In this document: positions 23,758 to 64,000 of the stretch, in pieces
Layout: each line of letters begins with the position of its first letter
Numbering within the stretch: the stretch's first letter is position 1
Assembly (NCBI GenBank): GCA_964016885.1
Contig: OZ024756.1
Span: 20,646,001-20,710,000 of the forward strand
Reading direction: 5' to 3'
DNA: 64,000 nucleotides
DNA from: Eledone cirrhosa
Taxonomy: Eukaryota
Translations under genes and position numbers: made by a program
Notes under the pieces: model-generated
The model's input: the letters and a program-made list of their open reading frames with translations, nothing else
Told to the model about the DNA's origin: nothing
The model's database searches: none

Positions 23758-23798
<41 letters not shown>

Positions 23799-24768: not shown

Positions 24769-24818
<50 letters not shown>

Positions 24819-30875: not shown

Positions 30876-32419
30876 ATAAACACATGAATCAGCTCTATAG
30901 GAAATAAAGCAAAAAAACAGAAATATTTGGAATAGAAACTTTATTTTCTTTAAACAAAACCCCACCTAAAAAACAAAACATGAAAATAAAACAAAAACAG
31001 TAACATATATATATTTGATAATTGGTTAACTTCAATAACCGTGAATTTGGAGCAACAGTAGTCAGAATAAAAAACATGGAATATGAATATATCACTTAGG
31101 TTTCCAATAAGATATCCAATAGCTGACTCAATGAAAAGAATACTTGTTGCATGACATGGAATATTATCTAGCTATAATAAAAGATGACCCATCCTCTGTT
31201 TTTGTCATACAGGTCTGCCTGTTGTTATAGGAAATGGATTATGTGTCATTAGTTCTATCATAAAGTAGATATGAGAAAGTAACTACTTTATGATAGAAAG
31301 AAAATAACAGTAACACATTGAATGCCAACTGTAATGGAATGTGCAAGCAAGACCTGGTCCCTAATCCATCTAAGAGGAGAGTATTTCCAAATAAATGATT
31401 TAAGATATGATTACATGTCTAACCCATGCCAGCAGACAAAAGTAGGTTTAAAAATGACTATAATATAATCATCATCTTTGACTTGTAAAATTTCCCTATC
31501 ACAATAAAACCAAATATAAAAAAAATATTAAACCCATAACATACTGTACTATGATTGACAGGAAAAAATATATTTCAAGAATATATTTCTTAAAATTAAT
31601 CTTATCTTTATATTTTTTACTACACATATCTATCGATATCCAACTTATTTTTCAGGTCACATAGTGTTAAGTGAATAGTAAAATTTACTTAACAAAATAT
31701 ATTTTGCTAGTTTCATTATTTAATTTTACAGATAAACATTTTCATAAATATTTCAGGGTGCATTTCTCTGCTCCAAATTTATATAATATATTAATACTTT
31801 ATAAATCTTAGACGACCTAATGGTAGATCAGGTACATTCACTCTAAATTCCACATTATTTAAGGTCTTGTTTCAGCATCAGCGAAGGTAGTCACTTCATC
31901 TGCACTTGTAAATCTTCCTCACCAGCAGTCAGTTACGTTTATTACTACTGTTAATCTTCATGCCAGTCGAACATCCCATCATGCAGCAGAACCAATGTTC
32001 ATCCTCTATTTTGTAGTGACCTCTTGGATGTTGCTCCTCATAAAAGCTCCTTGTTGCCTGTTGTTGTAGTTGGTCTAACTTGATGTTTCAATAATCTTTA
32101 TATCAGTGGTTTTCAAAGCAACATATTTCATTACACAAGGTACCTGAAAGTAGATACTGTGAAAGACCCACCACCAAAAAAAAAAAAAAAAAAGCTGCCT
32201 CATCCAAATCCTTGGACTTCCATCAGAATGTTCAGCAGTTACCAATCAGAGATGCTACACCAGGTGGCAGTTGGTATCCACAGCTCTTTAACTTCATCTG
32301 GTTGACTGTCCATAATATGTAATACTTCACCTGAAATGAAAGAAACAGAAACTCTCCACCTCTCAAGTTACACAACTTGAATTATCACCACTCCATTGGC
32401 TTCTTGTCATCAGTTGTTT

Positions 32420-35400
32420 CAATCCACCTTGATGATGTCACAGATGTTCCATTCCACCATGACGTCAGAGATGTCCCACTCCTCCTTGATGATGTCAGAT
32501 GTTCCACTCTTCGATGTTGTCAGATGTTCCATTCCACCTTACTGATGTCACAGATGTCCAACTCCACCTTGATGATGTCACAGATGTCCCACTCCAACTT
32601 GCTGTCATCACGGATGTCTCAATCCACCTTTATGTTGTCAGATATTCCACTCAAGCTTGATGTTGTCACAAATGTCCCACTCCAACTTGATGTCATCACA
32701 GATGTCCAACTCCAACTTGCTGTTATCACAGATGTTCCACACCGCCTTGTTGTCACAGATATTCCACTCCAACTTGCTGTTGTCACAGATGTCCCACTCC
32801 AACTTGCTGTCGTCACAGATGTCCCACGCCAACTTGCTGTTATCACAGATGTTCCACTCCGCCTTGATGTTGTCACAGATGTCCCATTCCGCCTTGATGT
32901 TGTCACAGATGTCCCACTCCAACTTGCTGTCATCACGGATGTCTCAATCCACCTTTATGTTGTCACAGATATTCCACTCAAGCTTGATGTTGTCACAAAT
33001 GTCCCACTCCAACTTGCTGTCATCACGGATGTCTCAATCCACCTTTATGTTGTCAGATATTCCACTCAAGCTTGATGTCACAAATGTCCCACTCCACATC
33101 ACCTTACTGATGTCACAGATGTCCCACTCCACCTTGATGATGTCACAGATGTCCTACTCCACATTGGTGATATCACAAATGTCCCACTCCACCTTGATGA
33201 TGTCACAAATGTCCTACTCCACATCACCTTACTGATGTCACAGATGTCCCACTCCACCTTGATGTTGTCACAAATGTCCCACTCCACCTTGATGTCCCAC
33301 TCCAACTTGCTGTTATCACAGATGTTCCACACTGCCTTGTCATCACAGATGTCCCACTCCACCTTAATGTCACAGATGTTCCACTCCAACTTGCTGTCGT
33401 CACAGATGTCCCACTCCAACTTGCTGTCGTCACAGATGTCCCACGCCAACTTGCTGTTATCACAGATGTCCCACTCCGCCTTGATGTTGTCACAGATGTC
33501 CTACTCCACATTGGTGATATCACAGATGTCCCACTGCACCTTGATGTTGTCACAGATGTCCCACTCCAACTTGCTGTCATCACGGATGTCTCAATCCACC
33601 TTTATGTTGTCACAGATATTCCACTCAAGCTTGATGTTGTCACAAATGTCCCACTCCAACTTGCTGTCATCACGGATGTCTCAATCCACCTTTATGTTGT
33701 CACAGATATTCCACTCAAGCTTGATGTTGTCACAAATGTCCCACTCCACATCACCTTACTGATGTCACAGATGTCCCACTCCACCTTGATGATGTCACAG
33801 ATGTCCTACTCCACATTGGTGATATCACAGATGTCCCACTGCACCTTGATGTTGTCACAGATGTCCCACTCCAACTTGATGTCATCACAGATGTCCAACT
33901 CCAACTTGCTGTTATCACAGATGTTCCACACCGCCTTGTTGTCACAGATATTCCACTCCAACTTGCTGTTGTCACAGATGTCCCACGCCAACTTGCTGTT
34001 ATCACAGATGTTCCACTCCGCCTTGATGTTGTCACAGATGTCCCATTCCGCCTTGATGTTGTCACAGATGTCCCACTCCAACTTGCTGTCATCACGGATA
34101 TCTCAATCCACCTTTATGTTGTCACAGATATTCCACTCAAGCTTGACGTTGTCACAAATGTCCCACTCCACATCACCTTACTGATGTCACAGATGTCCCA
34201 CTCCACCTTGATGATGTCACAGATGTCCTCCTCCACATTGGTGATATCACAAATGTCCCACTCCACCTTGATGATGTCACAAATGTCCTACTCCACATCA
34301 CCTTACTGATGTCACAGATGTCCCACTCCACCTTGATGTCATCACAGATGTCCCACTCCAACTTGCTGTTATCACAGATGTTCCACACTGCCTTGTCATC
34401 ACAGATGTTCCACACTGCCTTGTCATCACAGATGTCCCACTCCACCTTAATGTCACAGATGTTCCACTCCAACTTGCTGTCGTCACAGATGTCCCACTCC
34501 AACTTGCTGTCGTCACAGATGTCCCACTCCAACTTGCTGTCGTCACAGATGTCCCACGCCAACTTGCTGTTATCACAGATGTCCCACTCCGCCTTGATGT
34601 TGTCACAGATGTCCCATTCCGCCTTGATGTTGTCACAGATGTCCCACTCCAACTTGCTGTCATCACAGATGTCCCACTTCAACTTGCTGTCATCACAGAT
34701 GTCTCACTCCAACTTGATGTCACAGATGTCCCACTCCACCTTTGTTGTCAGATATTCCACACAACCTTGATGTCACAAATGTTCCACTCCACCTTGATGA
34801 TGTCACAGATGTCCTACTCCCCATTGGTGATATCACAGATGTCCCACTGCACCTTGATGTTGTCACAGATGTCCCACTCCAACTTGATGTCATCACAGAT
34901 GTCCAACTCCAACTTGCTGTTATCACAGATGTTCCACACCGCCTTGTTGTCACAGATATTCCACTCCAACTTGCTGTTGTCACAGATGTCCCAGATATTC
35001 CACTCCACTTTGATCTTGTCAGATATTCCACTCCACCTTGATTTTGTCACAGATGTCCAATTCCATCTTGATGATGTCACATGTTCCATTCCACCTTGAT
35101 GTTGTCACATGTTCTACTCCACCTTACTGATGTCACAGATGTCCCACTCCACCTTGATGTTGTCACAGATGTCCCACTCCAACTTGCTGTTGTCACAGAT
35201 GTCCCACTCTGCCTTGATGCTGTCACAGATGTCCCACTCTGCCTTGACGCTGTCACAGATGTCCCACTCTGCCTTGATGCTGTCACAGATGTCCCACTCC
35301 AACTTGCTGTCGTCACAGATGTCCACTCCAACTCGATGTCATCCCAGATGTCCCACTCCACCTTGATGTTGCCACATGTCTTACTCCACCTTACTGCTGT

Positions 35401-36880
35401 CACATGTGCAAGTCCACGATGATGACTCAGATGTTCCACTCCACTTTGATGATGTCACTGATGTCCTACTCCACTTCCCTGTTGTCACTGATGTCTCACT
35501 CCACCTTGATGTCAGATGTTTCACTTCACGTTGATGATGTCACTGGGGTCCCACTCCAGTTTGCTGTTGTGACAAATATTCCACTCCAAATCCTTGGACC
35601 TCCATCAGAATGTTCAGCAGTTACCAATCAGAGATGCTACACCAGGTGGCAGTTGGTATCCACAGCCCTTTAACTTCATCTGGTTGACTGTCCATAATAT
35701 GTAATACTTCACCTGAAATGAAAGAAACAGAAACTCTCCACCTCTCAAGTTACACAACTTGAATTATCACCACTCCATTGGCTTCTTGTCATCAGTTGTT
35801 TCAATCCATCTTGATGTCACAGATGTTCCATTCCACCGTGATGTTACAGATGTTCCATTCCACCTTGATGTCACAGATGTCCCACTCCTCCTTGATGATG
35901 TCAGATGTTCCACCCCTCCTTGATGATGTCAGATGTTCCATCCCACCTTGATGTCACAGATGTTCCATTCCACCTTGATGTCACAGATGTCCCATTCCAC
36001 CTTGATGATGTCACAGATGTCCCACCCCACCTTGATGATGTCACTGATGTCCTACTTCACCTTGCTGTTGTCACAGATGTCTTAATCCACCTTGATGATG
36101 TCACAGATGTCTCAATCCACCTTGATGTCACAAATGTCTCAATCCACCTTGATGTCACAAATGTCTCAATCCACCTTGATGTTGTCACAAATGTCTCAAT
36201 CCACCTTGATGTTGTCACAAATGTCCCACTCCACTTTGATGTTATCACAGATGTTTCACTCTACCTTGATGTTATCACAGATGTCTTACTCCACATTGAT
36301 GTCACAAATGTTCCACTCCACCTTACTTTTGTCACATATGTCCCACACCTCTGTGATGTCGCCACAGATGTTTCACTCCACCTTAATGATATCACTGATG
36401 TCCGACTCCACCTCAATCACTCACAGATGTTTCCCTCCACCTTCATCTTGTCACAGATGTTCCACTCCACCTTGATGATGTCACTGATGTCCCAATCCAC
36501 CTTGCAGTTATCACAGATGTTTCACCCTATATTGATGTTATCACAAATGTCGTACTCCCCATTGATGTTGTTACAAATGTTCCACTCCACCTCAATCACT
36601 CACAAATGTTCCACTAGACTTCCCTGTTGTCACAGATGTTCCACTCCACCTTCATGATGTCACTGATGTCCCACTCCACCTCAGTCAAGTTACAGATGTC
36701 CCATTCCACCCTGATATCACAGATGAACCAGTCCACTTTTCTGTCATCACAGATGTCCCACTCCAGTTTGCTGTTGTGACAAATATCCCACTCCATTTCC
36801 CTGTTGTCACATGTCCTGCTCCATCTTGATGATATTACAGATGTCCCACTCCACCATGTTACAGATGTTCCACTCCAGTC
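32420..36880. repeat. 30-bp satellite (GTCACAGATGTCCCACTCCAACTTGCTGTT)n with 27/28/35-bp variants, in two blocks split by a duplicated unique cassette at 35585-35810
   Basis: Directly visible; repetitive 10-aa ORFs in several frames. Confidence 0.95.
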
Positions 36881-37819
36881 ACTATCTTGCTGTTTTCACA
36901 TCTCGGTCACAGATGCAATTTATTCTTGCAACCATAGTTACTCCATACTGACTGTTGTCACTGTAGATGCTCTTTCATGTTTGTATCAGATAATTAATCG
37001 CTCTTTTGTTACTATATTTCTATGGCAGATGTCCTCCTTAGTCATGTCAACTATGTTAACGACATATGCTCCTTAGTGTTGTCACCCTAAACAGATCCCA
37101 AGGTCACTAGTAGTTGTTGTCACCATATCCAAGATAAATGATACTCCTCATCTCCTTGGTCTTGTGATGGAACATCTTTGTATCTTGTTTTTGCTGTTAC
37201 CACATGTTAGTATGTTACATATTCACCATTTACCTATTATTGAAACCATGGCAGCAACATATTACATTTGTGACACTCCTGTATTGACTGTATGTCATGC
37301 AGTGGTATACTATATAGCTGCTGAAATCATATGGGCTGATTTTTCTTCCTGGTTTAATCAAGGCAGATATTTCTCTTTGGTATTGTTACTATAAACATTT
37401 GTCACAAGAACTCTTAATGGTGATACTGTATGTTAATTACAGGTATTCTCCTTGTCATGGTTACCACCATGTTGGTAGTAACCATCACTGTTCCTCTTGC
37501 TATTGTTAATATCTGCTATCTACATATGTCACTTGGTCCAACAGACACGACACAATTGCTGTTGAATGTTACTTTTGTTTTCTTAGTAAGGGTAATTTTG
37601 TTGTCACCGATAAACCCACCCAGTGCACTCTGTAAAGTAGTTGGCTATAGGAAAGATATCCAGCTGTAGAAAACCTGCCAAACGGGCCAGGAAGACTCTT
37701 TAGTTGTGTTAAAGAGATGCATGCAAACAGATGTGTGCCTCAGAAATCAGCAGCTCTACTTAAGTACTGATTTTGTTTGTGCCTAGTTTCCAGTTGACCC
37801 ATAACAATTGTCATAAATT

Positions 37820-39075
37820 TCCAGATGTTCAACCACACACATCACGAGATTTCAGATGTTCCACCACAGTTGTTACCAGTCTTCAGAAGTTCCATCCCAT
37901 TTGTTACCAGTCTTCAGATGTTCCATTGCAGTTGTTACCAGTCTTCAGATGTTCCATTGCAGTTGTTACCAGTCTTCAGATGTTCTATCACAGTTGTGAC
38001 CAGTCTCCAGATGTTCCACTTCAGTTGTTACCAGTCTTCAGATGTTCTAATACAGTTGTTACCAGTCTTCAGATGTTCTATCACCAGTTGTTACCAGTCT
38101 CCAGATGTTCCACTGCAGTTGTTACCAGTCTCCAGATGTTCCACTGCAGTTGTTACCTGTCTTCAGAAGATCCACCACACAAACATCAGATAATTCATCT
38201 TTCTGTTCTCTGTAGCTACAAGTCGTTCACACTCTCCTATATATATATCACCATTCTCCAGGAATGGCACTGCCTGGAAATAAAATAAAATAAAAAACAC
38301 AAACCTCTACCTGTCACTGTTGCAGAATCACCATCGATCAGTTACATTTCAAAATATGCTGAAGAAGTACGTCACAGCAAAAACATTCTCCCCCATATGT
38401 TTATCAAGCAGCAGATGTCGCCAGTCTCCAGATGTTCCAGCACAGTTGTTACCAGTCTTCAGATGTTCCAGCACAGTTGTTACCAGTCTTCAGATGTTCC
38501 AGCATAGTTGTTACCAGTCTTCAGATGTTCCAGCACAGTTGTTACCAGTCTTCAGATGTTCCAGCACAGTTGTTACCAGTCTTCAGATGTTCCAGCATAG
38601 TTGTTACCAGTCTTCAGATGTTCCAGCACAGTTGTTACTAGTCTTCAGATGTTACCAGTCTTCAGATGTTCCAGCATAGTTGTTACCAGTCTTCAGATGT
38701 TCCAGCACAGTTGTTACCAGTCTTCAGATGTTCCAGCATAGTTGTTACCAGTCTTCAGATGTTCCAGCATAGTTGTTACCAGTCTTCAGATGTTCCAGCA
38801 TAGTTACCAGTCTTCAGATGTTCCAGCACAGTTGTTACCAGTCTTCAGATGTTCCAGCATAGTTGTTACCAATCTTCAGATGTTCCAGCACAGTTGTTAC
38901 CAGTCTTCAGATGTTCCAGCACAGTTGTTACCAGTCTTCAGATGTTCCAACACAGTTGTTACTAGTCTTCAGATGTTCCACCACAGTTGTTACCAGTTTC
39001 CAGATGTTCCACCACAGTTGTTACCAGTCTCCAGATGTTCCACTACAGTTGTTACCAGTCTCCAGATGTCCCAGT
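37820..39075. repeat. 31-bp satellite (CAGATGTTCCAGCACAGTTGTTACCAGTCTT)n in two blocks (about 37850-38170 and 38420-39070)
   Basis: Directly visible tandem array. Confidence 0.95.
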
Positions 39076-42000
39076 TCCTAGTTGTCACTAGTTTCTTGCA
39101 AATACTCCATCAGTGTTGTATTTCAACAGTAGATCATGATCCCAACACCTTACAGTTGATGTTAAAGCTAATCACAGGTCTCCCTCTCTGTGACAAGACT
39201 GTAACAGAATCGGTGTAAAGGACACAACCTACCTCCTCTTTTTAACCATTCTCTTACACCAGCAATGATGTCAGTTTTTTTCCAAGTGTTTAGACTGTCA
39301 CAAATTCAGCAGAGAAACAAGTTACAAATGACAGGCCCTCTTTCCAATATTTGACATGACTTCACTCAAATTCTCCATCACAGCTGTCACCAGCATTCTT
39401 GTAGAAGCTGTCGTCAGTTTGCAGTAGATATGCTATCAAATATCTAATTAGTTTATAGCATGTTCCAACAGTCTACTTAGCTTCCAATAAACATTTCATC
39501 AATAAATGTTCAGTAAATAGTCTATCTCCCAGTCATTACCAGTTCATAGTCAATGGTTCCATCAGCTACCACCAGTGTCCAATTAAGTGAAAAATAAAAA
39601 GAAAAGATTCCCTATTTGTCAACAGATGTCAACATTTCATTAAACAGATGTCATCAATTTCCAGATGTGCCACCAATAGTTCCCAGATGTCACTCCACCA
39701 ATCTCCAATATAGTGTTACAGCTCCCAGTGTCACCAATCTCCAATAACTCCCAGATGTCATCAATCTTCAGTAGATTACAGCTCCTGATGTCACCAGTCT
39801 CTAGTAGATGTTAATGTTACAGCTCCAGATGTCACCAATCTCCAGTAGTTGTTCAACTCCCACTGTCACCAATCTTCAGATGTTATAGATGTAACCAATC
39901 TCCAGTAAATGTTACAACTTCTAGATGTCACCAATCTTCAGTAGATGTTAAGCTCCCAGATGTCTGCAATCTTCAGCAGATTTTAGTTGTCACCCATCTC
40001 CAGTAGATGTTTACAGCTCCCAATTGTCACAGTATTTCATTAAATGTTCCATCACAGCCCTTGTTTTCATGTTCTCTCTTGTATTTCAACAGTAGATAAC
40101 CACATACCTCTACACCTTACAGTTGATATCAGAAACAAATCATAGACATATTAGCTCAGTGAGACTAGCAATGATTCCATAGTTTCTGAAAATGTTCAGT
40201 CACAAAGGTCACCCCTGAATAACATTACATAAGCAGACATATATGTTACAAAAGACAGATTTGGTCAAATATTTGACAATCATAAACATTGTCATCCATT
40301 TCCACATGTTCCAACACAGTTGTCACCAGTATACAGATGTCCCCAGTCACCACCAGTTTCCATCAGATATGCAACGAACATTTTGTTTACAATAGATTTC
40401 AAATGTATATACATCTGAAAGTAAAACTAAGCAGTTTTCTGTCATTGGTGACACCATAGACAGTCACATTCCTTATTTTCAAATAGGTTTACAATTCACT
40501 GTTGATCTGTTACCAGTTACCACTTTCACTAGATGTCCAATCACCCAGTTGTCACCAATATTCTATCTCTTAGCTGTCACCATGTTTTATGAATTGTCCC
40601 ACCACACTGTAGATATTCAATCTCTCAGCTGTTACCAGGTTTTAGTAAATGTTTCACCATACCATCATCACCAATCTCCAGAAAATATTAAATCCCTCAG
40701 TTGTCACCAGGTTTTATATTAAATGCTCCAACATCCATTGTCAATATTCAATCTCTCAGCTGTCACCAGATTTTAAATGTTCCACAGTACCATTGTCACC
40801 AATCTGTAGTAGATATTAAATGTCATGCCACCAGGTTTTATTGAATATTCCACCAAACCATTATCACCCATCTCCAGAAAATATTAAATCTTTGTTGTCA
40901 CAAGTTTCTTGTAGTAGATATTCAATCTCTCAGTTGTCACCATGTTTTCAATGTTCCACCAAAGCATTGTCACCAATATTCAATAGTTATTCAATCTCTC
41001 AGCTGTCACCAAATTTTAGATGTTCCACCATACCAATGCCACCAATCTGTAGTAGATATTCAATCTATCACCTGCCACCAGTTTCTTGTAGATGTTTGTT
41101 ATCTCAGAGCTGATGTTCTCTTATCTTCTCTACCTTACAGTTGATATCAGGTCTAATCATAAAAAGTCTCTCTGAGGCAGACTGTAACACTCTTGTATCT
41201 ACCATCCAGACCAGCAGTGATGTCAGTTTCTATAAGTTTTCCCTTTAGACACAGTTTACAATGATGATTCTCCAGCTCTATATATGATACCAGCCACAAA
41301 TGACATTACTGGAAAAAAACATAAGAAAAAGTAAAAACAAACATCTACATGTCAATGTTGGATAAAAAAAACAACAAAAAAAAAAACAACAATCATCTAC
41401 CTGTTCATGTTGCAGAAATCGCCATGGGTCAATCACATCTGCAAATGTTGTGCTCAAGTTACAGATGTCATCTATTTCCAGATATTCCACCAATATCACA
41501 GAAATCAGCAATCTCCAGTAGATGTTACAGCTCCCAGATGTCACCAATCTCCAGTAGAATGTTGCAGTTCTCAGCAATCTCCAGATGTCACTAATTTCCA
41601 GATGTTACAGTATTTCATTAAATGTTCCACAATGCCATTGTAACTATTAGTTTCTTGTAGATGTTCCATCACAGCCCTGGTTGTCTACATGTTCTCTCTT
41701 GTATTTCAACAGTAGATAACCACATACGTCTACACCTTACAGTTGATATCAGGTACTAATCATAGACATTCTTTCTATCTTAGAGACAGAATTAGTGTAA
41801 AAAACACAAACCACCTCATCTATCTATAATCTAGACCAGCAATGATTTCATAGTTTCTGTAAATGTTCAGACTGTCACAAAGGTCACCACTGAATAACAT
41901 TACATAAGGTTGACTCTTATTCAGCAGACATATATTAAACAAAAGACAGACTCCATGAAATATTTGACAATCATAAACGTTGTCATCCATTTCCAGATGT

Positions 42001-42189
42001 TCCACCACAGTTGTCACCAGTCACTATAGAATGCTAGTGTGGAAAAATGGACATTAAACAGGTGACGATGATGATGTTCCACCACAGATGTCACCAGCTG
42101 CCATCAGATATGCAATCAGATATTTACAATAAATTTCAAATGTATATACACCTGAAAGTAAAACTAAGCAGTTTTCTGTCATTGGTAAC

Positions 42190-44882
42190 CAGCGCTGCCA
42201 ATGAGTGTAGGTTCATACAAAACTACGTTTTGCTCAAAATTTTGATGTGCTGAATGTTCGGACGAATTTGCTGTACGTTTTAGTGATCTTGCCATCGGTT
42301 TATAAAATTTATGTTTTGACGCATTGATTGAGTGCATTTTCAGATATGCGTGTTTCCGAGCTTCACAAGAATAAAAGCACGTGAGAATGCAGACGAGACT
42401 TGTGCATGCAAGCGCACGTTGACTTCAAGGGCGTCTGTAAATTTGGGTGAAGTATATGTCCAGTTTACCACGCCATATCTGTCAAAACGCAGGAATTCTT
42501 CTCACAAACTGGTGTAAAAGGTGTGAATTTTTTTCCAAAAGTTTGATAGATTAGATTTAATTTTACAGAGCTAATTTATACAACCACGCCATATCAGTCT
42601 GAACACAAAAGCAGAATTCTTATAACCTACAGTGTGAACGGTATGAGATGTTTTTAATAGTTTAATTAATTCAAATAAATCATATGAATCAGATATGAGT
42701 GATGGAACTGTGAAACGAGAACATTCTTCAGATAATGAACATAAAGCAGCAGATAAGAATAAGGCTAGATAGGCATCGTATGAAAGTAAGCTGCCGTCCA
42801 AATTATTGTACGATCAAAAATTTTTTTCGTTGGAAGTGGGCAAGAACGATACAACTGAAGGCAAATGCATATTATGCAAATGTGAAATTGCCGACAGTTT
42901 GAGTCAAATTTTACGACATGGACAGAAAAGCACCGCAAGAATGCAAAAGGCGCGAACAAAGCAACAAAATTGACAAATTTTATCCAAGCCTCTTCGTTTT
43001 CTTCACTCCAGAAAAGTAGTATCTGCTGAATTAAAGTACTGTGCATTTGTTGTTGAGCATAATCTACCCATCTCCATTTTGGACCACTTGCCTGGCCTTG
43101 TTGTAAACGCCTGTCCTGATTCTAAAATCGCCCAGGATGTGAAGTGTGCCAGAACAAAAGGCACATCCATCTTTTCAAACGTCATCAGCCCCTATGGCTT
43201 CAACACTTTATTAAAGAAGCTTCATTCGACAAAATTCTCCCTCATCATCGATGAAACAACTGATGTTTCAACACTTAAACAACTCGTTCTTGTATCCAGA
43301 TATTACGACGTTGAAATTCAAAAGACTGTTGACGATTTTCTAACGCTTATGGAAATAAATGATTGCAGTGTTGTGGGTATTTACAACTGTCTTCTATCGT
43401 TTTTCAACGAACACGCTATTCCTTTGGAAAATTTGATAGGTTTCGCCTGTGATAATGCGAGTGTTATGAGATGGGCAGCAAAGGAGGCGTCCAGCATTTG
43501 TTGAAGCAGACGAGACCAGATCCACTTGTGCAAGCCTGTGTTTGTCATTCATTACACTTATTGTTCATCAAAAGCGTGCAATGAATTACCAAATTCCGTG
43601 GAAGAATTGACAAGAAGTATTTATGCATACTTTAGTCACAGTCCTAAGCGGATCAATGAATACAAAGGTCTGCAGTAAATAGCTTCAATTGATCCTCACA
43701 AAATCTTGCATGCAAGCTGCACGAGGTGGCTGTCTCTCAAGCAAGTTGTGGAGCGCATTTTAGAGCAGTGGCCAGCATTGCTGGCATATTTCACCCAAGC
43801 AACATTGGAGGGTGGGTGTCCATCTACGGCTCGAAGAATTCTCACTGAAATGAAGAATCCTCTTACAAAGATGTATTTTACATCTTTTATTTTAAATGAC
43901 GTCAACAAACTTAATCTGGAATTCCAGGCCGAAAGCTATTGGATGCATAAACTCAAAAGAGCAATCAACGCTGGAATGAAGGGAATTTTGAGCAATTTCA
44001 TTAAACCTGATTTACTTTCTGCCATCAATGTGTGTGAGATTAATGTCAACGATTCAACGGCACACCAACCATTAGATCGTATCTATTTTGATGCTGTAGC
44101 TGAGAGCATTTTACACGACAATTCTACAACCATTGCCCTTGATGAATTGCTGACCTTCCAACAGAATATACTACGATTCTTTGTTTGTTTTTCAAACCAA
44201 ATGCTAATGCGGCTTTTGTCTTGCACTATGCAGAACAATTTGGAACTACTTGAGGCGTTAGACTCAACCAATGTGGAGAGAAGGCCAAAGTCAATAATTC
44301 CACTTGTTATGCGATTTTCAAGTCTTTGTGATGAGAAAGATTACGAAGAGATAAATCAGGAATGGCGCCACCTGACGATTCAAGTTTCTTCCTTCATCCC
44401 GCACAACGATCCAGAAAAATTTTGGTTTGCTGTCTCACAAGAGAAGTGTGGCGATGAGAACCGTTACCCTCTGCTGTCATCTCTTATGCTTAGTCTTCTT
44501 TCTTTACCCCACTCCTCCACAGCGGCTGAAAGAATTTTCTCTGTTCTCCAGTCTATTAAAACAAAGAATCGAAATTGTTTGAAAACTTCCACTCTTAACG
44601 CTCTTGTTAGGTCAAAACATTTGCTACGACATGCCGACTGCATGACGTGGGAGCCCGATGAACATCTTTGCAAAGCATTATTTGAAAAAAATTGGTACAA
44701 CAGAGAATCTGCTCAGGAAGATGACGTTTCTTTTTGATGCCCTTATGTTTAAATTGTCAATAAATGTTAACTTCAAAAATATGTATAAAAAGAATGTTTT
44801 TAATTGTAATTGGGGGATTTAGTAAAATTCTGTACGTTTTGGTCAGATGCTGTACGTTTTGAAAAAACTTTCGGCAGCGCTG
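42190..44882 (+). mobile_element. Full-length but decayed hAT DNA transposon (2693 bp)
   Basis: 10-bp TIRs CAGCGCTGCC / GGCAGCGCTG; exact 8-bp TSD TTGGTAAC at 42182-42189 and 44883-44890; subterminal TACGTTTT repeats at both ends; composition distinct from flanks. Confidence 0.96.
42695..44737 (+). pseudogene. hAT transposase pseudogene (ZBED/ZNF862-like), with frameshifts and stops
   Basis: Motifs FSLIIDETTDVS, GFACDNASVM, CVCHSL, TRWLS and LSLPHSSTAAERIFS (hATC dimerisation domain) are spread over ORFs 43079-43504, 43706-44737 and the broken frames between; BED-finger remnant CILCKCE near 42866. Confidence 0.92.
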
Positions 44883-51700: not shown

Positions 51701-54700
51701 CCAGTATATTTTAGTTGAGGTTCTATCATATAGTTGTCACAAATATCCTGTAGATATTCTCTCACCATAGTTGTGATTTGTCTCTAGTAGATGTTACACC
51801 AAACAACTCACACAAACTTCCATTTCATATTCCATCACTGTGTTCTAACCAGCTTCCAATTCATGTTCTATTGCAGTCATCACCAGGGAATGTTCCACAA
51901 CACAGATTTGATGTTTGTATTTATCATACAGAGAAACCACACACCTGAAAATGAAGCAAGACTGACCTCCAAAACTTTTATTTGCCAACATCTTACTCTC
52001 CAGATCTTCAATTATACAGTTGTCACCTATATCCTGTAGACATTCCACTTCACAGGTGTCACCGATGTCTCGTAGATGCTCCATCACACAGTTGTCACCA
52101 ATATCTTGTAGATGTTCCACGTCACAGTTGTCACCAGTCTCCGGTAGATGTTCCACGTCACAGTTGTCACCAGTCTCCGGTAGATGTTCCACCCAATACT
52201 TTTATAACCAACATCTTGTAGATGTCTCACCATAGCTGTCACCAATATCCAGTCATGTTCCAACACATGGTTGTCAATGTCATGTAGATGTTCCATCACA
52301 GAGTTGTCACCAGCGTTCTGTAAATGCTCCACCACCAAGCTTCATACATTTCCACTATTATTTAGAGATATTAACACCTGAAAATGAAACAAAAGATACT
52401 TCCACCTCTTGTTCCTTAACTGTACAAATGTCACCAATGTCCTGTAGATGTGTCACAACATTGTAACCAAGTCGAAGGAGATGTTCTCTCATAGCTGTCA
52501 TCATATTTCATATGTTCCATCTCACAGTTGTCACCAATATCTTGTAGATGTTCCATCACACAGTGGCCACTAATGTCTTGTAGATGTTCCACCACATAGT
52601 TGTCATAAATGTCCTGTAGGTGTTCCATCACACAGTTGTCACCAATGTTTTGTAGATCTTCCACCACACATTTGTCACCAATGTCTTATAGGTGTTTCAC
52701 CACACAGCTGTCAGCAGATGTCCCACCACTCAGCTTCATGAATTTCCATTTATCATTGAGAAATACCAACACACCTGAAAATCAGACAAGACATACTTCC
52801 ACTCTCTTGTCCCTTAGGTCAGCTTCTTAATGGCTCTATTTGTGCCTTGACAGTTGCCACCAGATTCCAGCAGTTTTTAGTTTATGTTCCATCACATAGT
52901 TGTAAAAAATGTCCTGTAGATATTGTCACTTCCCAGTAGATGTTACACCAAACAACTCACACAAACTTCCATTTCATATTCTATCACAGTTCTCACAGCT
53001 TCAAATTCACCAGGAAATGTTCCACCGTACATTTCTATTTATCATACAATGCCATAAACCTGAAAATGAAGCAAAACATACCTCCATTTCAGTTCGTTCT
53101 CTCTTGTCAACACATTAAAAGCCCCAGATGTTCCTTCAGACAGTTGTCATCAATACGTAGTAGATATTTCATCAACCAATGTCTTGTAGATGTTCCACCA
53201 TAGAGTTGTCACCAATATCTTGTAGATGTTCCACAAGAGTTGTCACAAATGTCCCTTAGAGGTTTCATCATAGAGTTGTCACCAATGCCCTGTAGAGATT
53301 TCACCATAGAGTTATCACCAATGTCCTGTAGATGTTCCAGCATAGAGTTGTCAACAATGTCTTGTAGATCTTCCACCATAGAGTTGTCAGCAATGTCTTG
53401 TAGATGTTTCACCATACGGTAATTGCCAATGTCTTGTAGATGTTCCACCATAGAGTTGTCACCAATGTCTTGTAGATGTTCCACCAGAGTTGTCACGAAT
53501 GTCTTGTAGATGTTCCACCACACAGTTGTCACCAATATCTTGTAGATGTTCCATCACACAGTTGTCACTAATGTCTTGTAGACGTCCCACCACTCAGCTT
53601 CATGAATTTCCATTCATCTTTGAGATACCACCAACGGACCTAAAAATGAAACAAAACATACCTCCACTTCTTGTTCCTTAAACCAGCTTCTTAATGTCTA
53701 CTTCTGTCACCAATGTGTTGTTGTTCCATCACACAGTTGCCACCAAGTCATAGTAGGTGTTTTCTCACAGCTGTCATCACATTTCATATGATCCATCACA
53801 GTTGTCAATGTCTTGTAGATGCATCATCACACAGTAGTCACGATAATCCTATATATGTTCCATCACACCGTTGTCACCAATGCCTTGTAGATGTTCCTTC
53901 CATCACATATTTGACACCAATGTCCAGTAGATGTTCCACCACAGCTGTCACCAATGTCATGATATTCCATCACACAGCTGTCAGTCAACAGATGTCCCAC
54001 CACCCAGCTTCATAAATTTCCATTTATCATTGAGAGATACCAACACACCTGAAAACCAAACAAGACATACTTCCACTCTCTTGTCCCTTAGGTCAGATTC
54101 TTAATGAGTCTATTTGTGCCTTGGCAGTTGCCACCATTTTTTATTTTATGTTCCATCACATAGTTGTCAAAAATGTCCTGTAGATATTGTCACTTCCCAG
54201 TAGATGTTACACCAAACAACTCGCACAAACTTCCATTTCATATTCTATCACAGATCTCACAGCTTCAAATTCACCATACAATGCCATAAACCTGAAAATG
54301 AAGCAAAACATACCTCCATTTCGTTCTCTCTTGTCAACATATTAAAAGCCCCAGATGTTCCTTCAGACAGTTATCAATACCTAGTAGATATTTCATATTA
54401 AAGTTGTCACTAATGTCTTGTAGATGTTTCACCATAGAGTTGTCACCAATGTCCTGTAGATGTTCCACCATAGAGTTGTCACCAATGTCCTGTAGATCTT
54501 CCACGATAGAGTTGTCACCAATGTCTTGTAGATGTTCCACCGGAGTTGTCACCAATGTCCCATAGAGGTTTCACCATAGAGTTGTCACCAATGTCCTGTA
54601 GAGATTTCACCATAGAGTTATCACCAATGTTCTGCAGATGTTCCACCATAGAGTTGTCACCAATGTCTTGTAGATCTTCCACCATAGAGTTGTCAGCAAT

Positions 54701-57700
54701 GTCTTGTAGATGTTTCACCATACGGTTACCGCCAATGTCTTGTAGATGTTCCACCACACAGTTGTCACCAATATCTTGTAGATGTTCCATCACACAGTTG
54801 TCACTAATGTCTTGTAGACGTCCCACCACTCAGCTTCATGAATTTCCATTCATTGAGAGATACCAACAGACCTAAAAATGAAATAAAACATACCTCCATT
54901 TCTTGTTCCTTAAACCAGCTTCTTAATGTCTACTTCTGTCACAAAAATGTTACCAGCTGTCACCAAGTCATAGTAGGTGTTTTCTCACAGCTGTCATCAC
55001 ATTTCATATGATCCATCACAGTTGTCAATGTCTTGTAGATGCATCATCACACAGTAGTCACGATAATTCTGTATATGTTCCATCACACCATTGTCACCAA
55101 TGTCTTGTAGATGTTCCTTCCATCACATATTTGTCACCAATGTCCAGTAGATGTTCCACCACAGCTGTCACCAATGTCATGATATTCCATCACACAGCTG
55201 TCAGTCAACAGATGTCCCCCCACCCAGCTTCATAAATTTCCATTTATCATTGAAAGATACCAACACACCTGAAAATCAAACAAGACATACTTCCACTCTC
55301 TTGTCCCTTAGGTCAGATTCTTAATGACTATTTGTGCTTTGACAGTTGCCACCAGATTCCAACAGTTTTTAGTTTATGTTCCATCACATAGTTGTCAAAA
55401 ATGTCCTGTAGATATTGTCACTTCCCAGTAGATGTTACACCAAACAACTCGCACAAACTTCCATTTCATATTCTATCACAGATCTCACAGCTTCAAATTC
55501 ACCAGGGAATATTCCACCATACAATGCCATAAACCTGAAAATGAAGCAAACATACCTCCATTTCGTTCTCTCTTGTCAACATATTAAAAGCCCCAGATGT
55601 TCCTTCAGACAGTTATCAATACCTAGTAGATATTTCATATTAAAGTTGTCACCAATGTCTTGTAGATGTTCCACCATAGAGTTGTCACCAATGACTTGTA
55701 GATGTTCCACCATAGAGTTGTCACCAATGTCTTGTAGATGTTCCACCGTAGAGTTGTCACCAATGTCCTGTAGATGTTCCACCGTAGAGTTGTTACCAAT
55801 GACTTGTAGATGTTCCACCATAGAGTTGTCACCAATGTCCTGTAGATGTTCCACCATAGAGTTGTCACCAATGTCTTGTAGATGTTCCACCATAGAGTTG
55901 TCACCAATGTTCTGTAGAGATTTCACCATAGAGTTGTCACCAATGTCCTGTAGAGATTTCACCATAGAGTTATCCCCAATGTCCTGTAGATGTTCCACCA
56001 TAGAGTTGTCACCAATGTCTTGTAGATCTTCCACCATAGAGTTGTCAGCAATGTCTTGTAGATGTTTCACCATACGGTTATCGCCTATGTCTTGTAGATG
56101 TTCCACCACACAGTTGTCACCAATATCCTGTAGATGTTCCATCACACAGTTGTCACTAATGTCTTGTAGACGTCCCACCACTCAGCTTCATGAATTTCCA
56201 TTCATCTTTGAGATACCACCAACAGACCTAAAAATGAAACAAAACACACCCTCATTTCTTGTTCCTTAAACCAGCTTCTTAATGTCTACTTCTGTCACAA
56301 ATGTGTTGTTGTTCCATCACACAGTTGCCACCAAGTCATAGTAGGTGTTTTCTCACAGCTGTCATCACATTTCATATGATCCATCACAGTTGTCAACAAT
56401 GTCTTGTAGATGCACCATCACACAGCAGTCACGAAAATCCTGTTTATGTTCCATCACCAATGTCCTGTAGATGCTCCACCACACAGTTGTCACCAATGTC
56501 CTGTAGATGTTTCATCACACAGTTGTCACCAACGTCCTGTAGATGTTCCACCACACAGTTGTCACCAATGTCCTGTAGATGTTCCATCACTCAGCTTCAT
56601 ATATTTCCCATTAATTATTCAGACACCACCAACACGCCTGAAAATGAAACAAAAACATACCACCACCTCTTTTTCCTTAAGCCAGCTTCTTCATGTCTCC
56701 AGTTGTTCTTTCACAGATGTCAATAGCTGTCACCAATGTCTTGTAGATCTTCCACCAGAGCTGTCACAAAGTTGCAGTATGTGTTCTCTCACAGCAGTCA
56801 TCATATTTCCTATGATCCATCATAAAGTTGTCACCAATGTCTTGTAGATATTCCATCACTTCATGAATTTCCATTAATCATTTAGAGACACCAACACACC
56901 TGAAAATGAAACAATATGTACCTCCACCTCTTTCCTTAAGTCACCATATTCCAGCAGTTTTTAGTTGATGTTCCACCATACAGATGCCACTTTTCTCCAG
57001 TAGATGTTACACCAACCGCTCACACAAACTCCATTTGATATTTCCCTACTTCTCAGTTCTCAGCAGCTTCCAATTCCTGTTCTATAGCAGTCATGGCCAG
57101 GGAATATTCCACCACACAGATTTCACATTTCTATTAATCATACACAAATACTACACACCTGAAAATGAAGCAAAACACCACCAATACTTTCTCTCACCAC
57201 CATCTTAAAGTCTCCAGATCTTCCATCACACAGTTGTCACCAATGTTTTCTAGATGTTCCATCACACAGTTGTCAAAGACTTGAACATTTCCCTGAAAAA
57301 CTGTCACCAATGTCTTGCAAATGTTGCACCACATTTGTCACCAATGTCCAGTAGAAGTTCACTACAATTGTTACCATGTAGATGCACTACCATAAACTTA
57401 TTACCAATGTCCTGCAGATGCTGCATCACAATTTTATGGGAACAAGTTCCAGTAGGTATTTTCACACTAAAGTCATCACACAGTTGTCACCAATGTCTTG
57501 CAGATGTTCCATCACACAATTGTCACCAATGTCTTGTAGATATTCCAACAAACAGTTGTCACCAATGTCTTGTAGATGTTCCACCACACAGCTGTAACCA
57601 ATGTCCTGCAGATGTTCCATCACAGTTCTCACTAATGCCCTGTTGATGTTCCATCACACAGCTATCACCAATGTCTTGTAGATGTTCCATCACAGTTCTC

Positions 57701-60700
57701 ACTAATATCCTGTAGATGTTCCACCACACAGTTGTCAGTCAGCAGCATAGGTCCCACCATTCAGCTTCATAAAATTTCCATTCATAATCCAGTGACAGAA
57801 CCAACACATACCTCCACCCTCTTGTTCCTTACGTCACCTTAATATCTATTCCTTCACAGATGTCATTTATCAGACAATGATACCACACACCTGAAAATGA
57901 AGCAAAATATACCTCCATTTTTTCCCCTCTTGTGAAAGTCCCAGATGTTCCTTGACACAGTTGTGACCAATATCTTGTAAATGCTCAATCACAGCTGTCA
58001 CCAATGTCTTGTAGATGTTCCACCACATTTGTGACCAGTATATTCCATCACTCAGTTGTCACCAATGTCTTGTAGATGTTCCATCACACAGTTGTCACAA
58101 ATGTCTTGTAGGTGTTCCATCACACAGTTGACACCAATGTTTTATAATTCCTTCACCACACAGTTGTCAACAATGTCTTGTAGGTGTTTCACCACACAGC
58201 TGTCAGCAGATGTCCCACCACTCAGCTTCATGAATTTCCATTCATCTTTGAGAGATACCACCAACGGACCTGAAATTGAAACAAAACATACCTCCACCCT
58301 CTTGTTCTTTAAACCAGCTTCTTAACATCTCCACTTCTTTCTGCACAGATGTCACCAGATTCCAGCAGTTATTGTTCCATCATATAGTTGTCACAAATGT
58401 CCCGTAGATATTCTCTCAACATAGTTGTCACTTGTCTCCAGTAGATGTACACCAAACAGCTCACACAAACTTCCATTTGATATTCCATCACTGAGTTGTC
58501 ACCAATGTATTCTAGATGTTCCATCACACAGTTGTCACCAATGTCTTGCATATGTTCCATCATAGTTGTCACCAATGTCTCATAGATCTTCCATCACATA
58601 GTTGTCACCAATGTATTCTAGATGTTCCATCACACAGTTGTCACCAATGTATTCTAGATGTTCCATCACACAGTTGTCACCAATGTCTTGCAGATGTTCC
58701 ATCACAGTTGTCACCAATGTCTCATAGATCTTCCATCACATAGTTGTCACCAATGTATTCTAGATGTTCCATCACACAGTTGTCACCAATGTATTCTAGA
58801 TGTTTCACCACAGCTGTCAGATGTCATTGAGATACCACCAACAAACCTGAAATTGAAACAAAACATACCTCCACCCTCTTGTTCTTTAAACCAGCTTCTT
58901 AACGTCTCCACTTCTTTCTGCACAGATGTCACCAGATTCCAGCAGTTATTGTTCCATCATATAGTTGTCACAAATGTCTCGTAGATATTCTCTCAACATA
59001 GTTGTCACTCTCCAGTAGATGTACACCAAACAGCTCACACAAACTTCCATTTGATATTCCATCACTGAGTTGTCACCAATGTATTCTAGATGTTCCATCA
59101 CACAGTTGTCACCAATGTCTTGCATATGTTCCATCATAGTTGTCACCAATGTCTCATAGATCTTCCATCACATAGTTGTCACCAATGTATTCTAGATGTT
59201 CCATCACACAGTTGTCACCAATGTATTCTAGATGTTCCATCACACAGTTGTCACCAATGTATTCTAGATGTTCCATCACACAGTTGTCACCAATGTATTC
59301 CAGATGTTCCATCACAGTTGTCACCAATGTATTCTAGATGTTCCATCACACAGTTGTCACCAATGTATTCTAGATGTTCCATCACACAGTTGTCACCAAT
59401 GTATTCTAGATTTTCCTTCACACAGTTGTCACCAATGTATTCTAGATGTTCCACCACACAGTTGTCAGTCAGCAGCATAGGTTCCACCATTCAACTTCAT
59501 AAAATTTCCATTCATCATCCAGTGACAGAACCAACACATCTGAAAATGAAACAAGACATACCTCCAGCCTCTTGTTCCTTAAGTCACCTTAATATTTCTT
59601 TCTTCCTTCACAGATGTCAGCAGATTCCAGAAATTTTCAGTTGAGGTTTTAGCAAAAACTTGTCACAAATGTCCTGTAGATTTTCTGTCACCTTAGTTGC
59701 TATTTATCTTCTGTACACTAAACAGCTCACACAAATTACCATTTGATATTCCATGACAGTTCTCACCAGCTTTCAATTCATGTTCCATCGCTGTCATCAA
59801 CAAGGAATGTTCAACCACATAGATTTCCTGTTTCTATTTCAGACAATGATACCACACATCTGAAAATGAAGCAAAACATACCTCTTTTTTCCCTTCTTGT
59901 GAAAGTCCCAGATGTTTCTTCACAGAGTTGTGACCAACATCTTGTAGATTCTCTATCACAGATGTCACCAGTATGTTGTAGATGTTCTACCACTCAGTTG
60001 TCACTAATGTCCTGTAGATGTTCCATCACACAGTTGTCACCAATGTCCTGTAGATGTTCCATCACACAGTTGTCACCAATGTCCTGTAGATGTTCCATCA
60101 CACAGTTGTCACCAATGTCCTGTAGATGTTCCATCACACAGTTGTCACCAATGTCTTGTAGATATCCCATCACACAGTTGTCATCAATGTCTTGTAGATG
60201 TCGCATCACACAGTTGTCATCAATGTCTTGTAGATGTTCCATCACAGTTGTTATCAATGTCTTGTAGATGCTCACCACAGTTGTCATCTATGTCCTGCAG
60301 ATGTTCCTTCACACAGTTGTCACCAATGTCTTGTAGATGTTCCATCACACAGCTGTACATCAGCAGCAGATGTCCCACCACTCAGCTTCATAAATTTCCA
60401 TTCATCCTGGAGAGATACCACCAACACACCTGAAATTGAAACAAGACATACCTCCACCCTCTTGTTTCTTAATGTCTCCACTTCTTCCTGCACAGAAGTC
60501 ACCATATTCCAGCAGTTACTAGTTATTGTTCCATCATATAGTTGTCACATATGTCCTGAAGATATTTACTCACCATAGTTGTCAGTAGATGTACACCAAA
60601 CAGTTCACATAAACTTCCATTTGATATCCCATCACAGTTCTCACCAGCTTCCATTTCATGTAGATGACCCACCACAGTTTTCACCAGTATGTCGTTCCAC

Positions 60701-63700
60701 CACAGTTGTCACCAGTATGTTGTAGATGTTCCATCACACAGTTGTCACCAGTATGTTGTAGATGTCCCATCACAGTTGTCACCAGTATGTTGTAAATGTC
60801 CCATCACACAGTTGTCACCAGTATGTTGTAGATGTTCCATCACACAGCTTCATAAATTTCCATTCATCACTGAGAGATACCACCAACACACCTGAAATTG
60901 AAACAAAACATACCTCCACTCTCTTGTTTCTTAATGTCTCCACTTCTTCCTGCACAGATGTCACATTCCAGCAGTTACTAGTTGTTCCATCATATAGTTG
61001 TCACATATGTCCTGAAGATATTTACTCACCATAGTTGTCAGTAGATGTACACCAAACAGTTCACAAAAACTTCCATTTGATATCCCATCACAGTTCTCAC
61101 CAGCCTCCATTCCCTGCCCCCTCTTGTTAAAGTCCCAGATGTTCTTTCACACAGCTGTGACCAATATCTTGTAGATGCTCAATCACAGATGTCACCAATA
61201 TCTAATAGCTGCTCAATCACAGTTGTCAACAATGTTTTGTAAATGTTCCATCACACAGTTGTCACAAATATCTTGTAGATGTTCCTTCACACAGTTAGCA
61301 CCAATGAGATGCTCACCACAGTTGTCACCAATGTCTTGTAGATGTTCCACCACAGTTGTCACCAATGTCTTGTAGATGTTCCACCACAGTTGTCACCAAT
61401 GTCTTGTAGATGTTCCACCACAGTTGTCACCAGTATGTTGTAGATGTTCCACCACACAGTTGTCACCAGTATGTTGTAGTTGTAGATGTTCCACCACAGT
61501 TGTCACCAGTATGTTGTAGATGTTCCATCACGCAGCTGTCCCACCACTCAGCTTCATACATTTCCATTCATCCTGGAGAGATACCACCAACACACCTGAA
61601 ATTGAAACAAGACATACCTCCACCCTCTTGTTTCTTAATGTCTCCACTTCTTCCTGCACAGATGTCACATTCCAGCAGTTACTAGTTATTGTTCCATCAT
61701 ATAGTTGTCACATATGTCCTGTAGATATTGTCTCACCATAGTTGTCAATAGATGTACACCAAACAGTTCACATAAACTTCCATTTGATATCCCATCACAG
61801 TTCTCACCAGCTTCCATTTCATGTTCTATTGCAGTCATCAACAGTGAATGTTCAACCACAGATTTCACTTTTTCATTTATCATATAATGATACCACACGC
61901 CTGAAAATGAATCAAAACATACCTCCATTTCTTTCTCTCTTGTCACCATCTCCAGATGTCTCTTCATACATGCAACATCATTATTTTGTAGATCTTCCAT
62001 CACACAGTTGTCATCAATGCCTTGTAGATGTTCCACTCAATGCCTTGTAGATGTTCCACTCAATGCCTTGTAGATGTTCCACAACAGTTGTCACCAATGT
62101 CTTGTAGATGCTGCACCACACAGTTGTCACCAATGTCTTGTAGATGCTGCACCACACAGTTGTCACCAATGTCTTGTAGATGCTGCACCACACAGTTGTC
62201 ACCAATGTCTTGTAGATGCTGCACCACACAGTTGTCACCAATGTCTTGTAGATGCTTCACCACACAGTTGTCACCAATGTCTTGTAGATGCTGCACCACA
62301 CAGTTGTCACCAATGTCTTGTAGATGCTGCACCACACAGTTGTCACCAATGTCTTGTAGATGCTGCACCACACAGTTGTCACCAATGTCTCGTAGATCTT
62401 CCATCACATAGTTGGCACCACTGTCTCGTAGATGTTCCACCAAACAGTTGTCACCAATGTCTCATAGATCTTCCATCACACAGTTGTCACCAATGTCTCA
62501 TAGATCTTCCATCACACAGTTGTCACCAATGTCTCATAGATCTTCCATCACACAGTTGTCACCAATGTCTCGTAGATCTTCCATCACACAGTTGGCACCA
62601 GTCTCGTAGATATTCCACCACATAGTTGGCACCAGTCTTGTAGATATTCCACCACATAGTTGGCACCAGTCTTGTAGATATTCCACCACATAGTTGACAA
62701 TGTATTCTAGATGTTCCAGGAGTCCTCACTAATGTCCTGTAGATGTTCCAACACAGTTGTCAGTCAGCAGCATAGGTCCCACCACATCTGAAAATGAAAC
62801 AAGACATAACTCCTACCTCTTCTTAATGTCTCCACTTCTTTCTGCACAGATGTCACCAGTTACTAGTTATTGTTCCATCATATAGTTGTCACATATGTCC
62901 TGTAGATATTCTCTCACCATCGTTCTCAGTAGATGTATAGCTAACAATTCACAAAAACTTCCATTTGATATCCCATCAGTTCTCACCAGCTTCCATTTCA
63001 TGTTCTATTGCAGTCATCTCCATGGAATGTTCAGAGACTTCACTTTTTCATTTATCATACAATGATACCACACACCTGAAAATGAAGCAAAACATACCTC
63101 CATTTATTTCTTCATACATCCAACATCATTATTTTGTAGATCTTCCATTACAGTTGTTACCAATGCCCTGCAGCTGTTCCATCACACAGTTGTCACCAAT
63201 GCCTTGCAGATGTTCCAAGACAGTTGTCACCAGTACTATGTAGATGTTCCAACACACAGATGTCAGCAATGTCTTGTAGATGTTCCATCTTGTCACCAAT
63301 GTCTTGTAGATGTTCCATCTTGTCACCAATGTCCTGCAGCTGTTCCATCACAGTTGTCATCAATGTCTTGTAGATGTTCCACCACACAATTGTCACCCAA
63401 TGTCTTGTAGATGTTCCATGTTGTCACCAATGTCTTGTAGATGTTCCATCTTGTCACCAATGTCCTGCAGCTGTTCCATCACACAGTTGTCATCAATGTC
63501 TTGTAGATGTTCCACCACAGTTGTCACCAGTACATTGTAGATGTTCCATCACACAACTATCACCAATGTTCTGTAGATGTTCCACCACACAATTGTCACC
63601 CAATGTCTTGTAGATCTTCCATCACACAGTTGTCACCAATGTCCTGCAGCTGTTCCACCACACAGTTGTCATCAATGTCCAGCAGATCATTCAGAATCTG

Positions 63701-64000
63701 CAGGAAAAACAAACAAAACCTACCTTTACCTCTAGTTCCTTAATACTTTCAGGGATGACACCAGTTTGTAGTTGATGTTCTATGACAAATGTCCTGCAGA
63801 TAGTCATACTTGTCACTTTTCCAGATTCCGGTAGGTGCCACATCACAATTGCCAAGAGATTTCACTAGATGTTTTATTGCTCTCAATTGCCAAGAGATTT
63901 CACTAGATGTTTTATTGCTCTCAATACCAGGTTCACATCATTTTGTAGATCATCCGTCATACAGTTGTCACCAATGTCTTGCTACCAAATTTCTGTAGAT
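45720..64000. repeat. 34/36-bp satellite (GTTGTCACCAATGTCTTGTAGATGTTCCACCA[TA/CA][GA/CA])n interleaved with recurring unique cassettes; higher-order repeats of about 0.5-1.3 kb and one about 4.45-kb-offset duplication; runs off the window end
   Basis: Directly visible; ORF track shows duplicated peptides at offsets 4444-4480 (48465/52909, 49854/54334) and 574-577 (58369/58946). Confidence 0.95.

Follow-up and report, generated by a model that had tools for sequence, protein, structure and literature searches.

A nested repeat domain in one orientation

The stretch considered here, 64,000 nucleotides of the octopod Eledone cirrhosa (contig OZ024756.1 of assembly GCA_964016885.1, positions 20,646,001 to 20,710,000; hereafter the window), carries from about 31.8 kb to its right end a domain of ordered, related tandem arrays of 30-, 31- and 35/36-mers, as delimited with Tandem Repeats Finder (TRF). 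From the letters of the sequence, an earlier reading (the original prediction) had proposed a transcribed, non-coding repeat locus at this position. That proposal stands for the left 10 kb of the domain, on the evidence of one RNA run and an absence of coding signal, and is not shown beyond about 41 kb.

All arrays of the domain have one core in common and together take up 51% of 31.8-64 kb, versus 14% of the left half. Read from the left, a unique segment (31,015-32,400), probably the 3' segment of a minus-strand RNA and covered unspliced by contigs of the RNA run, gives way to a 30-mer array (32,404-36,855; 27-30-nt units, about 151 copies, purine-rich on the minus strand). A spacer that repeat comparison finds unique (36,860-37,850) carries a short dispersed-repeat fragment at 37,596-37,719; then come 31-mer arrays unable to hold one reading frame (37,851-39,075), diverged 35/36-mer units (39.7-41.6 kb) with older modules, traced by TRF and spacer comparison (39,076-42,189), and, to the right of a transposon insert, 36-mer arrays (46-63.7 kb) within higher-order units (44,883-64,000) that continue past the window end. 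The minus strand is the probable sense strand of all these arrays.

Their arrangement in a single orientation, part of the original prediction, is borne out: the TRF arrays are sequential, and among the matches listed none of 32 inverted self-BLAST pairs touches the domain. Likewise, there were no inverted matches among 47 domain spacers and no self-BLAST matches between the domain and the left half at E<1e-10, and none of the longest 25 among 810 short inverted pairs exceeds 34 nt, their complementarity being 70-91%. The C-rich, G-poor character of the plus strand is also confirmed, by a GC skew that falls below zero in all but one of the 32 one-kb bins starting at 32,001 (mostly -0.2 to -0.43), near-zero bins falling within the transposon. 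The modules between the arrays had been described as unique and are not; beyond 45.7 kb, 7,274 of 7,692 spacer bases (95%) have a paralogue inside the domain at 66-99% identity, which makes the domain a higher-order repeat. Repeats common with the left half amount to two short pieces, apart from the transposon, in the right 33 kb versus 37 segments in the left 31 kb.

The insert itself (42,190-44,882, plus strand, 2.7 kb) interrupts the repeat domain and lies antisense to the RNA proposed below. It is a hAT DNA transposon, with the ends (10-bp terminal inverted repeats), the 8-bp target duplication and the dimerisation domain of that class (Pfam Dimer_Tnp_hAT, PF05699, E 4e-12), differing from intact members in its broken transposase. 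Its nearest named proteins are from Octopus vulgaris (77% identity) and the crab Petrolisthes manimaculis (52%). The empty site agrees with a sister module near 40.4 kb, and the insert is a passenger, not the origin of the repeats.

Superimposed on the right-hand arrays is a recurrent pair of splice-like signals. Between 45,914 and 63,100 on the minus strand, at least 36 modules with an intact acceptor-like site recur at a median spacing of about 400 nt, with a donor-like site (mostly GAG/GTATGT, 22 copies) and an acceptor-like site (mostly TTTTCAG/G) that stand exactly 22 nt apart in 31 of the 36 and 21 or 23 nt apart in four, the donor being absent in one. An intron of 22 nt is below the size normally removed by animal spliceosomes. 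Longer intron-like GT-AG stretches occur at 38,274-38,310 (37 nt), 41,309-41,400 (92 nt) and 45,532-45,628 (97 nt); since these three have flanks in common, intron-like length seems to vary among copies of one module. Another GT-AG stretch, at 63,698-63,729, measures 26-32 nt. The claim that splice signals of the domain face the minus strand holds for donor-like motifs, of which the two parts of the domain have none on the plus strand and 30 on the minus (left half, 10 versus 12), and fails for acceptor-like motifs, which are mixed (11 plus and 6 minus in 31.8-42.2 kb; 12 plus and 30 minus in 44.9-64 kb). Most of the minus-strand donors derive from a single amplified motif, and as to strand they carry the weight of one observation.

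The left half of the window holds two convergent genes. CTU2 (9,400-25,294, minus strand, ATG at 25,288), the neighbour of the repeat domain, is recognized from the O. vulgaris CTU2 protein, which aligns exon by exon between 25,288 and about 9,400 with 70-100% identity; its 46-residue exon at 23,588-23,725 is 93% identical to CTU2 of O. vulgaris and 89% to that of Argonauta hians. Facing it, a multi-exon gene on the plus strand (about 500-7200) is, by its exon translations, a candidate for SSR1/TRAP-alpha, a translocon subunit. Minisatellites lie in introns of both: a 32-mer array of about 34 copies (2,106-3,201) in the SSR1-like gene, and a 31-mer array (47 copies, 21,851-23,310) and a 30-mer array (15 copies, 14,266-14,715) in CTU2, the last giving rise to an open frame of 229 codons that is spurious and lacks synonymous excess. 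CTU2 introns also contain a 350-bp dispersed repeat as an inverted pair (10,926-11,274 and 15,212-15,561, 95% identity), which could form double-stranded RNA in the CTU2 pre-mRNA. The single match of an Rfam scan, weak and tRNA-like (15,483-15,546), coincides with one arm of this pair; the repeat domain gave zero Rfam matches.

Apparently abundant RNA from the left end of the domain

Four sequencing runs of one study (here X1 to X4), none of them catalogued as RNA, contain 30,900-40,890, and the evidence they offer takes the form of assembled contigs. A 1,497-nt contig of X1 joins the CTU2 exons 25,218-25,294, 24,278-24,352 and 23,587-23,726 without introns at a depth of 8.96, and X1 is therefore spliced RNA; the contigs of X2-X4 continue through introns and are DNA. 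In X1, an unbroken contig of 1,179 nt covers 31,015-32,162 with no differences at a depth of 658.5, where the DNA runs reach 9.46 (X2), 7.11 (X3) and 8.49 (X4). The next X1 contig, 32,219-32,395, has a depth of 1,364 (16-18 in the DNA runs), about double, because it falls in a 218-bp segment (32,203-32,420) that is duplicated at 35,585-35,802 with 2 differences; as far as contig depth can tell, this doubling suggests that both copies are part of the abundant RNA, which would then reach at least 35.8 kb. Of 860 sampled words of 30,900-40,890, X1 contains a share of 0.84 (DNA runs, 0.80-0.82), and even if every word left of 36,860 were present, X1 must also contain no less than 60-64% of those in 36.9-40.9 kb. 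The transcript thus has the extent of a long non-coding RNA, at least 1.4 kb directly and about 10 kb by word share. A silent dispersed satellite, the outcome that would have refuted the original prediction, is not what the tested part proved to be: three DNA runs show a single copy of the unique 3' segment, and cover of it in the RNA run is strong.

A likely poly(A) signal would account for the left limit of this RNA. The first X1 cover is at 31,015, and for 30,905-31,014 arithmetic gives none (193 x 658.5 / 303 equals the bin mean of 419.4), a value to be read with the qualification that filtering may conceal contigs that are short and AT-rich. This boundary has one minus-strand AATAAA beside it (30,940-30,945), versus four plus-strand AATAAA motifs within 500 nt of it, from which we infer transcription of the minus strand. 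The unique terminal-exon-like segment that had been described here keeps its AATAAA and loses its outline: X1 contigs continue without splicing through the acceptor-like sites at 32,144 and 32,331, so that the exon extends past the unique segment. The segment had also been seen as directed at the CTU2 promoter, 5.6 kb away; X1 depth is 0-2.3 in the unique intergenic bins between the RNA 3' end and CTU2, no sign of read-through, and a promoter effect is unsupported.

Two further observations concern this boundary region. Just past the probable 3' end, a dispersed repeat (30,518-30,875), within which 112 bp are tandemly duplicated, has very high depth in all four runs. DNA contigs differ from the window at 30,051, 31,459 and 27,894, and those at 30,051 and 31,459 vary among runs of one sample, which suggests two alleles, that is, heterozygosity in the sample.

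Coding potential and competing readings

The repeat domain is without coding signal. No minus-strand frame is stop-free, all three having stops in 34 of 34 inter-module segments tested; within the arrays the longest stop-free stretch is 327 codons, and the frame switches repeatedly, being broken by 10 of 100 30-mers, 38 of 152 36-mers and 28 of 28 31-mers measured, and likewise by 34-nt units. In none of the stop-free frames is there a synonymous excess (115 30-mers and 249 36-mers, at or below expectation), and the sole excess sits in a frame whose consensus contains a stop. The longest stop-free stretch of the unique 3' segment, in six frames, is 75 codons. Searches for relatives were similarly unproductive: Pfam returned sub-threshold matches only, for three of five repeat translations; none of 128 candidates from protein searches with repeat translations was related; and a second translated search gave 96 weak matches (14-47% identity), of which the 12 examined were unrelated low-complexity repeats. 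A metagenome scan with one 30-nt stretch of the 36-mer had no matches, and an index that detects near-identical DNA only places a stretch of the domain in one organism. A mucin-like repeat-protein gene was considered and rejected, as there is neither a continuous frame through the arrays nor a synonymous excess.

The explanation that we favor, and to which we would give an even chance, is that the domain forms the 3' portion of a single non-coding RNA, very long, abundant and for the most part unspliced, that is likely retained in the nucleus. Such an RNA would be transcribed from the minus strand, starting at a promoter beyond 64 kb, running through 41-64 kb and ending at the AATAAA at 30,940; unequal exchange, acting repeatedly on an ancestral unit with a short intron-like element, may have enlarged the locus. 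The 36 or so donor-plus-acceptor cores, at 22 nt too close to be spliced together, would bind U1 small nuclear ribonucleoprotein (U1 snRNP) and 3'-splice-site factors without splicing. Factors bound in this way may suppress early cleavage at internal minus-strand AATAAA motifs and keep the RNA on chromatin; U1-dependent chromatin retention of non-coding RNA has reportedly been observed elsewhere. Meanwhile, unfolded purine-rich 30-36-mers would present hundreds of sites for proteins of the heterogeneous nuclear ribonucleoprotein (hnRNP) and serine/arginine-rich (SR) types, and the RNA is predicted to remain nuclear as a multivalent protein scaffold.

Composition, predicted folding and module conservation are in keeping with parts of this scheme. 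Purines predominate on the minus strand, where the arrays have UGGA at 15-34 per kb versus 4 in the left half, and a 30-mer stretch (33,400-33,700, minus strand) is less folded than 100 of 100 shuffles (z +4.95). A 36-mer stretch has a folding z of +1.27 and the terminal segment one of -2.39, the latter from only 20 shuffles; no conserved structure is claimed. Across the 36 modules the splice-like core is better preserved than its surroundings, with pairwise identities of 0.89 (donor), 0.80 (middle) and 0.89 (acceptor) versus 0.56-0.74 in the flanks.

A number of observations weigh against a long nuclear scaffold RNA. Its expression evidence comes from contigs of one run of one study, whose depth reflects expression poorly; X1 contigs show no strand, start or end and have no sex or tissue on record. 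The RNA evidence spans only the region up to 40.9 kb, the 22-nt modules lying further right; X1 words in 36.9-40.9 kb could be pre-mRNA; and a minus-strand AATAAA at 31,938 is crossed by an X1 contig. Four further module copies (46,590, 47,082, 47,506 and 57,806), excluded from the module counts, have lost the acceptor, and selection of modules by their acceptor inflates the apparent conservation of the acceptor among the 36. Consensus sites for N6-methyladenosine (m6A) occur at 58, 78 and 49 per kb, versus 36, 62 and 42 in shuffles, but the intronic 32-mer of the left-hand gene has 63 versus 49, so the density in the domain is not distinctive. Five of the six blocks have minus-strand CCC at only 0-0.7 per kb and the sixth at 3.0 (left half, 7.4), unlike the hnRNPK-binding repeats of Xist. 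Low transposon density could come from recent expansion; the scarcity of dispersed repeats is consistent with constraint but also with youth. Finally, the left-half minisatellites make arrays of 30-32-mers ordinary for this genome; it is the size and nesting of the domain, not the size of its unit, that are out of the ordinary.

The main rival, which we regard as unlikely, is that the abundant RNA represents a giant 3' untranslated region (3' UTR) of a highly expressed coding gene beyond 64 kb, the repeats having grown in its last exon or last intron. Such a gene would fit a transcript whose 5' end falls outside the window and whose 3' end resembles an ordinary poly(A) site, in a region where large minisatellites do occur inside genes. 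It has to contend with 33 kb in which no coding exon occurs and with an unspliced repeat tail of at least 4.8 kb, perhaps more than 10 kb, which would be extreme for so abundant an mRNA.

Somewhat less probable again is a functionless transcript, driven in abundance by a strong promoter through a runaway minisatellite of the "mirage" type (amplified from a former exon-intron junction) or through the remains of a repeat-protein gene. Most units measured have lengths divisible by three (90 of 100 30-mers and 114 of 152 36-mers), one minus frame is rich in Ser and Thr, and the translated, metagenome and near-identical-DNA searches found no relative in other species, all of which would suit such an origin. 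High contig depth with a clean boundary would not be expected of it, nor would a splice core kept across module types with diverged flanks, nor the small number of dispersed repeats in the domain. For the decayed-gene version in particular, the missing synonymous excess leaves no trace of recent coding constraint.

We think it improbable that the modules serve as true splice sites in a non-coding RNA of many exons. Since neighboring sites 22 nt apart cannot pair, each join would have to skip an exon or back-splice, yielding combinatorial isoforms or circles of about 220-970 nt. Donor and acceptor are indeed the best-kept columns of the modules, GTATGT is also the likely donor in 3 of 16 CTU2 introns examined, and related left-hand modules contain the 92- and 97-nt intron-like stretches; however, both acceptor-like sites that could be checked, those at 32,144 and 32,331, are read through in X1.

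We hold it very unlikely that the locus is a single-strand piRNA precursor in which the antisense hAT copy is a trapped target: a long one-strand unit with a transposon antisense to the proposed RNA would be in keeping with this, but the domain is poor in transposon fragments, unlike typical anti-transposon clusters, and the length and high depth of the X1 contigs point to a stable RNA. Silent satellite DNA, for which the higher-order tandem structure typical of satellite growth would speak, is the least credible reading of all, being largely refuted for 31-41 kb by X1 cover of the unique 3' segment at 658 and of most words in that interval, and could still hold for 41-64 kb.

Octopod sex chromosomes and repeat-built RNAs

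The sex-chromosome system of octopods is among the oldest in animals. This ancient ZZ/Z0 system shows partial dosage compensation, and two candidate RNAs have been put forward whose sequence design is left undescribed in the available text of the preprint that reports them (bioRxiv 10.1101/2024.12.09.627507). In that text the Z is chr16 of O. vulgaris, LG20 of O. sinensis and chr16 of the public O. bimaculoides assembly. One candidate, Zmast (OCTVUL_1NCB338440), is a Z-linked, male-specific, extremely abundant lncRNA (long non-coding RNA) from an 18-kb locus (19.56-19.58 Mb) with a long single exon of 7,098 nt and a mean of 990 transcripts per million (TPM) in male paralarvae; the other, Zfest, is a Z-linked sex-specific lncRNA antisense to Amnionless (both from bioRxiv 10.1101/2024.12.09.627507).

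Whether the Eledone locus is Z-linked is, in our estimate, a near-even matter. The scaffolds that bear the orthologues of its neighbor CTU2 measure 73.56 Mb in O. vulgaris (protein CAI9737463), 55.35 Mb in O. sinensis (XP_029647585) and 47.89 Mb in O. bimaculoides; O. vulgaris has 30 chromosomes with an N50 of 118.9 Mb and an L50 of 9, according to the part of the source available (PMC10700109), and 73.56 Mb is accordingly a mid-rank size, compatible with chr16 and also with its neighbors in rank. The 19 Z genes shared between species, a small subset, that are given in the portion of PMC10925132 available (Table S6) do not include CTU2, and neither CTU2 nor the scaffold lengths were found in the literature or in such supplements of PMC10925132, PMC13122204, PMC13282606, PMC9068888 and PMC12407938 as could be consulted. 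A search with the hAT insert, used to calibrate chromosomes, gave one octopus match, on a different chromosome. Two alleles in the DNA sample would fit an autosome or the Z of a ZZ male.

The locus resembles Zmast and Zfest in being octopod, long and non-coding, and Zmast further in its apparent abundance and in what may be a long unspliced exon. It differs from them in that the preprint, in the text available, mentions no tandem repeats or neighboring gene, so that the comparison with Zmast is by description only; from Zfest it differs in that Amnionless was not seen in this window. It is possible, on balance doubtful, that the locus is Zmast or has an equivalent role, that is, a Z-linked, male-specific dosage-compensation RNA of more than 30 kb, convergent with Xist and Rsx and held on its chromosome by dozens of unspliceable 22-nt elements.

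Were a counterpart of Zmast to be recognized here, the design of Xist and Rsx would have arisen independently in a mollusc; if not, the locus would still be a candidate architectural RNA for cephalopods. In the literature covered, which leaves out most subscription journals, no account of a cephalopod lncRNA built from repeats, or of the present locus, came to light. An abundant RNA made of hundreds of repeats offers ready probes for fluorescence in situ hybridization (FISH) and targets for knock-down, and the repeated 22-nt donor-acceptor element lends itself to testing whether splice signals that cannot be spliced retain RNA in the nucleus.

Xist and Rsx are very long non-coding RNAs of ordered internal tandem-repeat domains that are distinct in composition, as described in the part of the source available (PMC6633197). 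The gene in that style which had been predicted here is upheld in its repeat-domain architecture and, for the left 10 kb, in its non-coding RNA. It departs from Xist and Rsx in its domains: the arrays of this locus are one related family nested in higher-order repeats, built on a common core, whereas those of Xist and Rsx are distinct, and the inferred sense strand, on which this comparison depends, has no C-rich repeats of the hnRNPK type and almost no CCC. We therefore do not place the locus in the Xist/Rsx family, and confine the likeness to a long, non-coding architecture of ordered tandem-repeat domains.

A second comparison is with Drosophila hsr-omega-n, human HSATIII RNA and NEAT1_2, long and largely unspliced RNAs that scaffold nuclear bodies via hnRNP and SR proteins. 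As this locus would be, they are long, largely unspliced and repeat-rich, and its purine-rich GGA motifs recall those of HSATIII; it differs from them in appearing single and terminated by a poly(A) signal, in a comparison made by description only.

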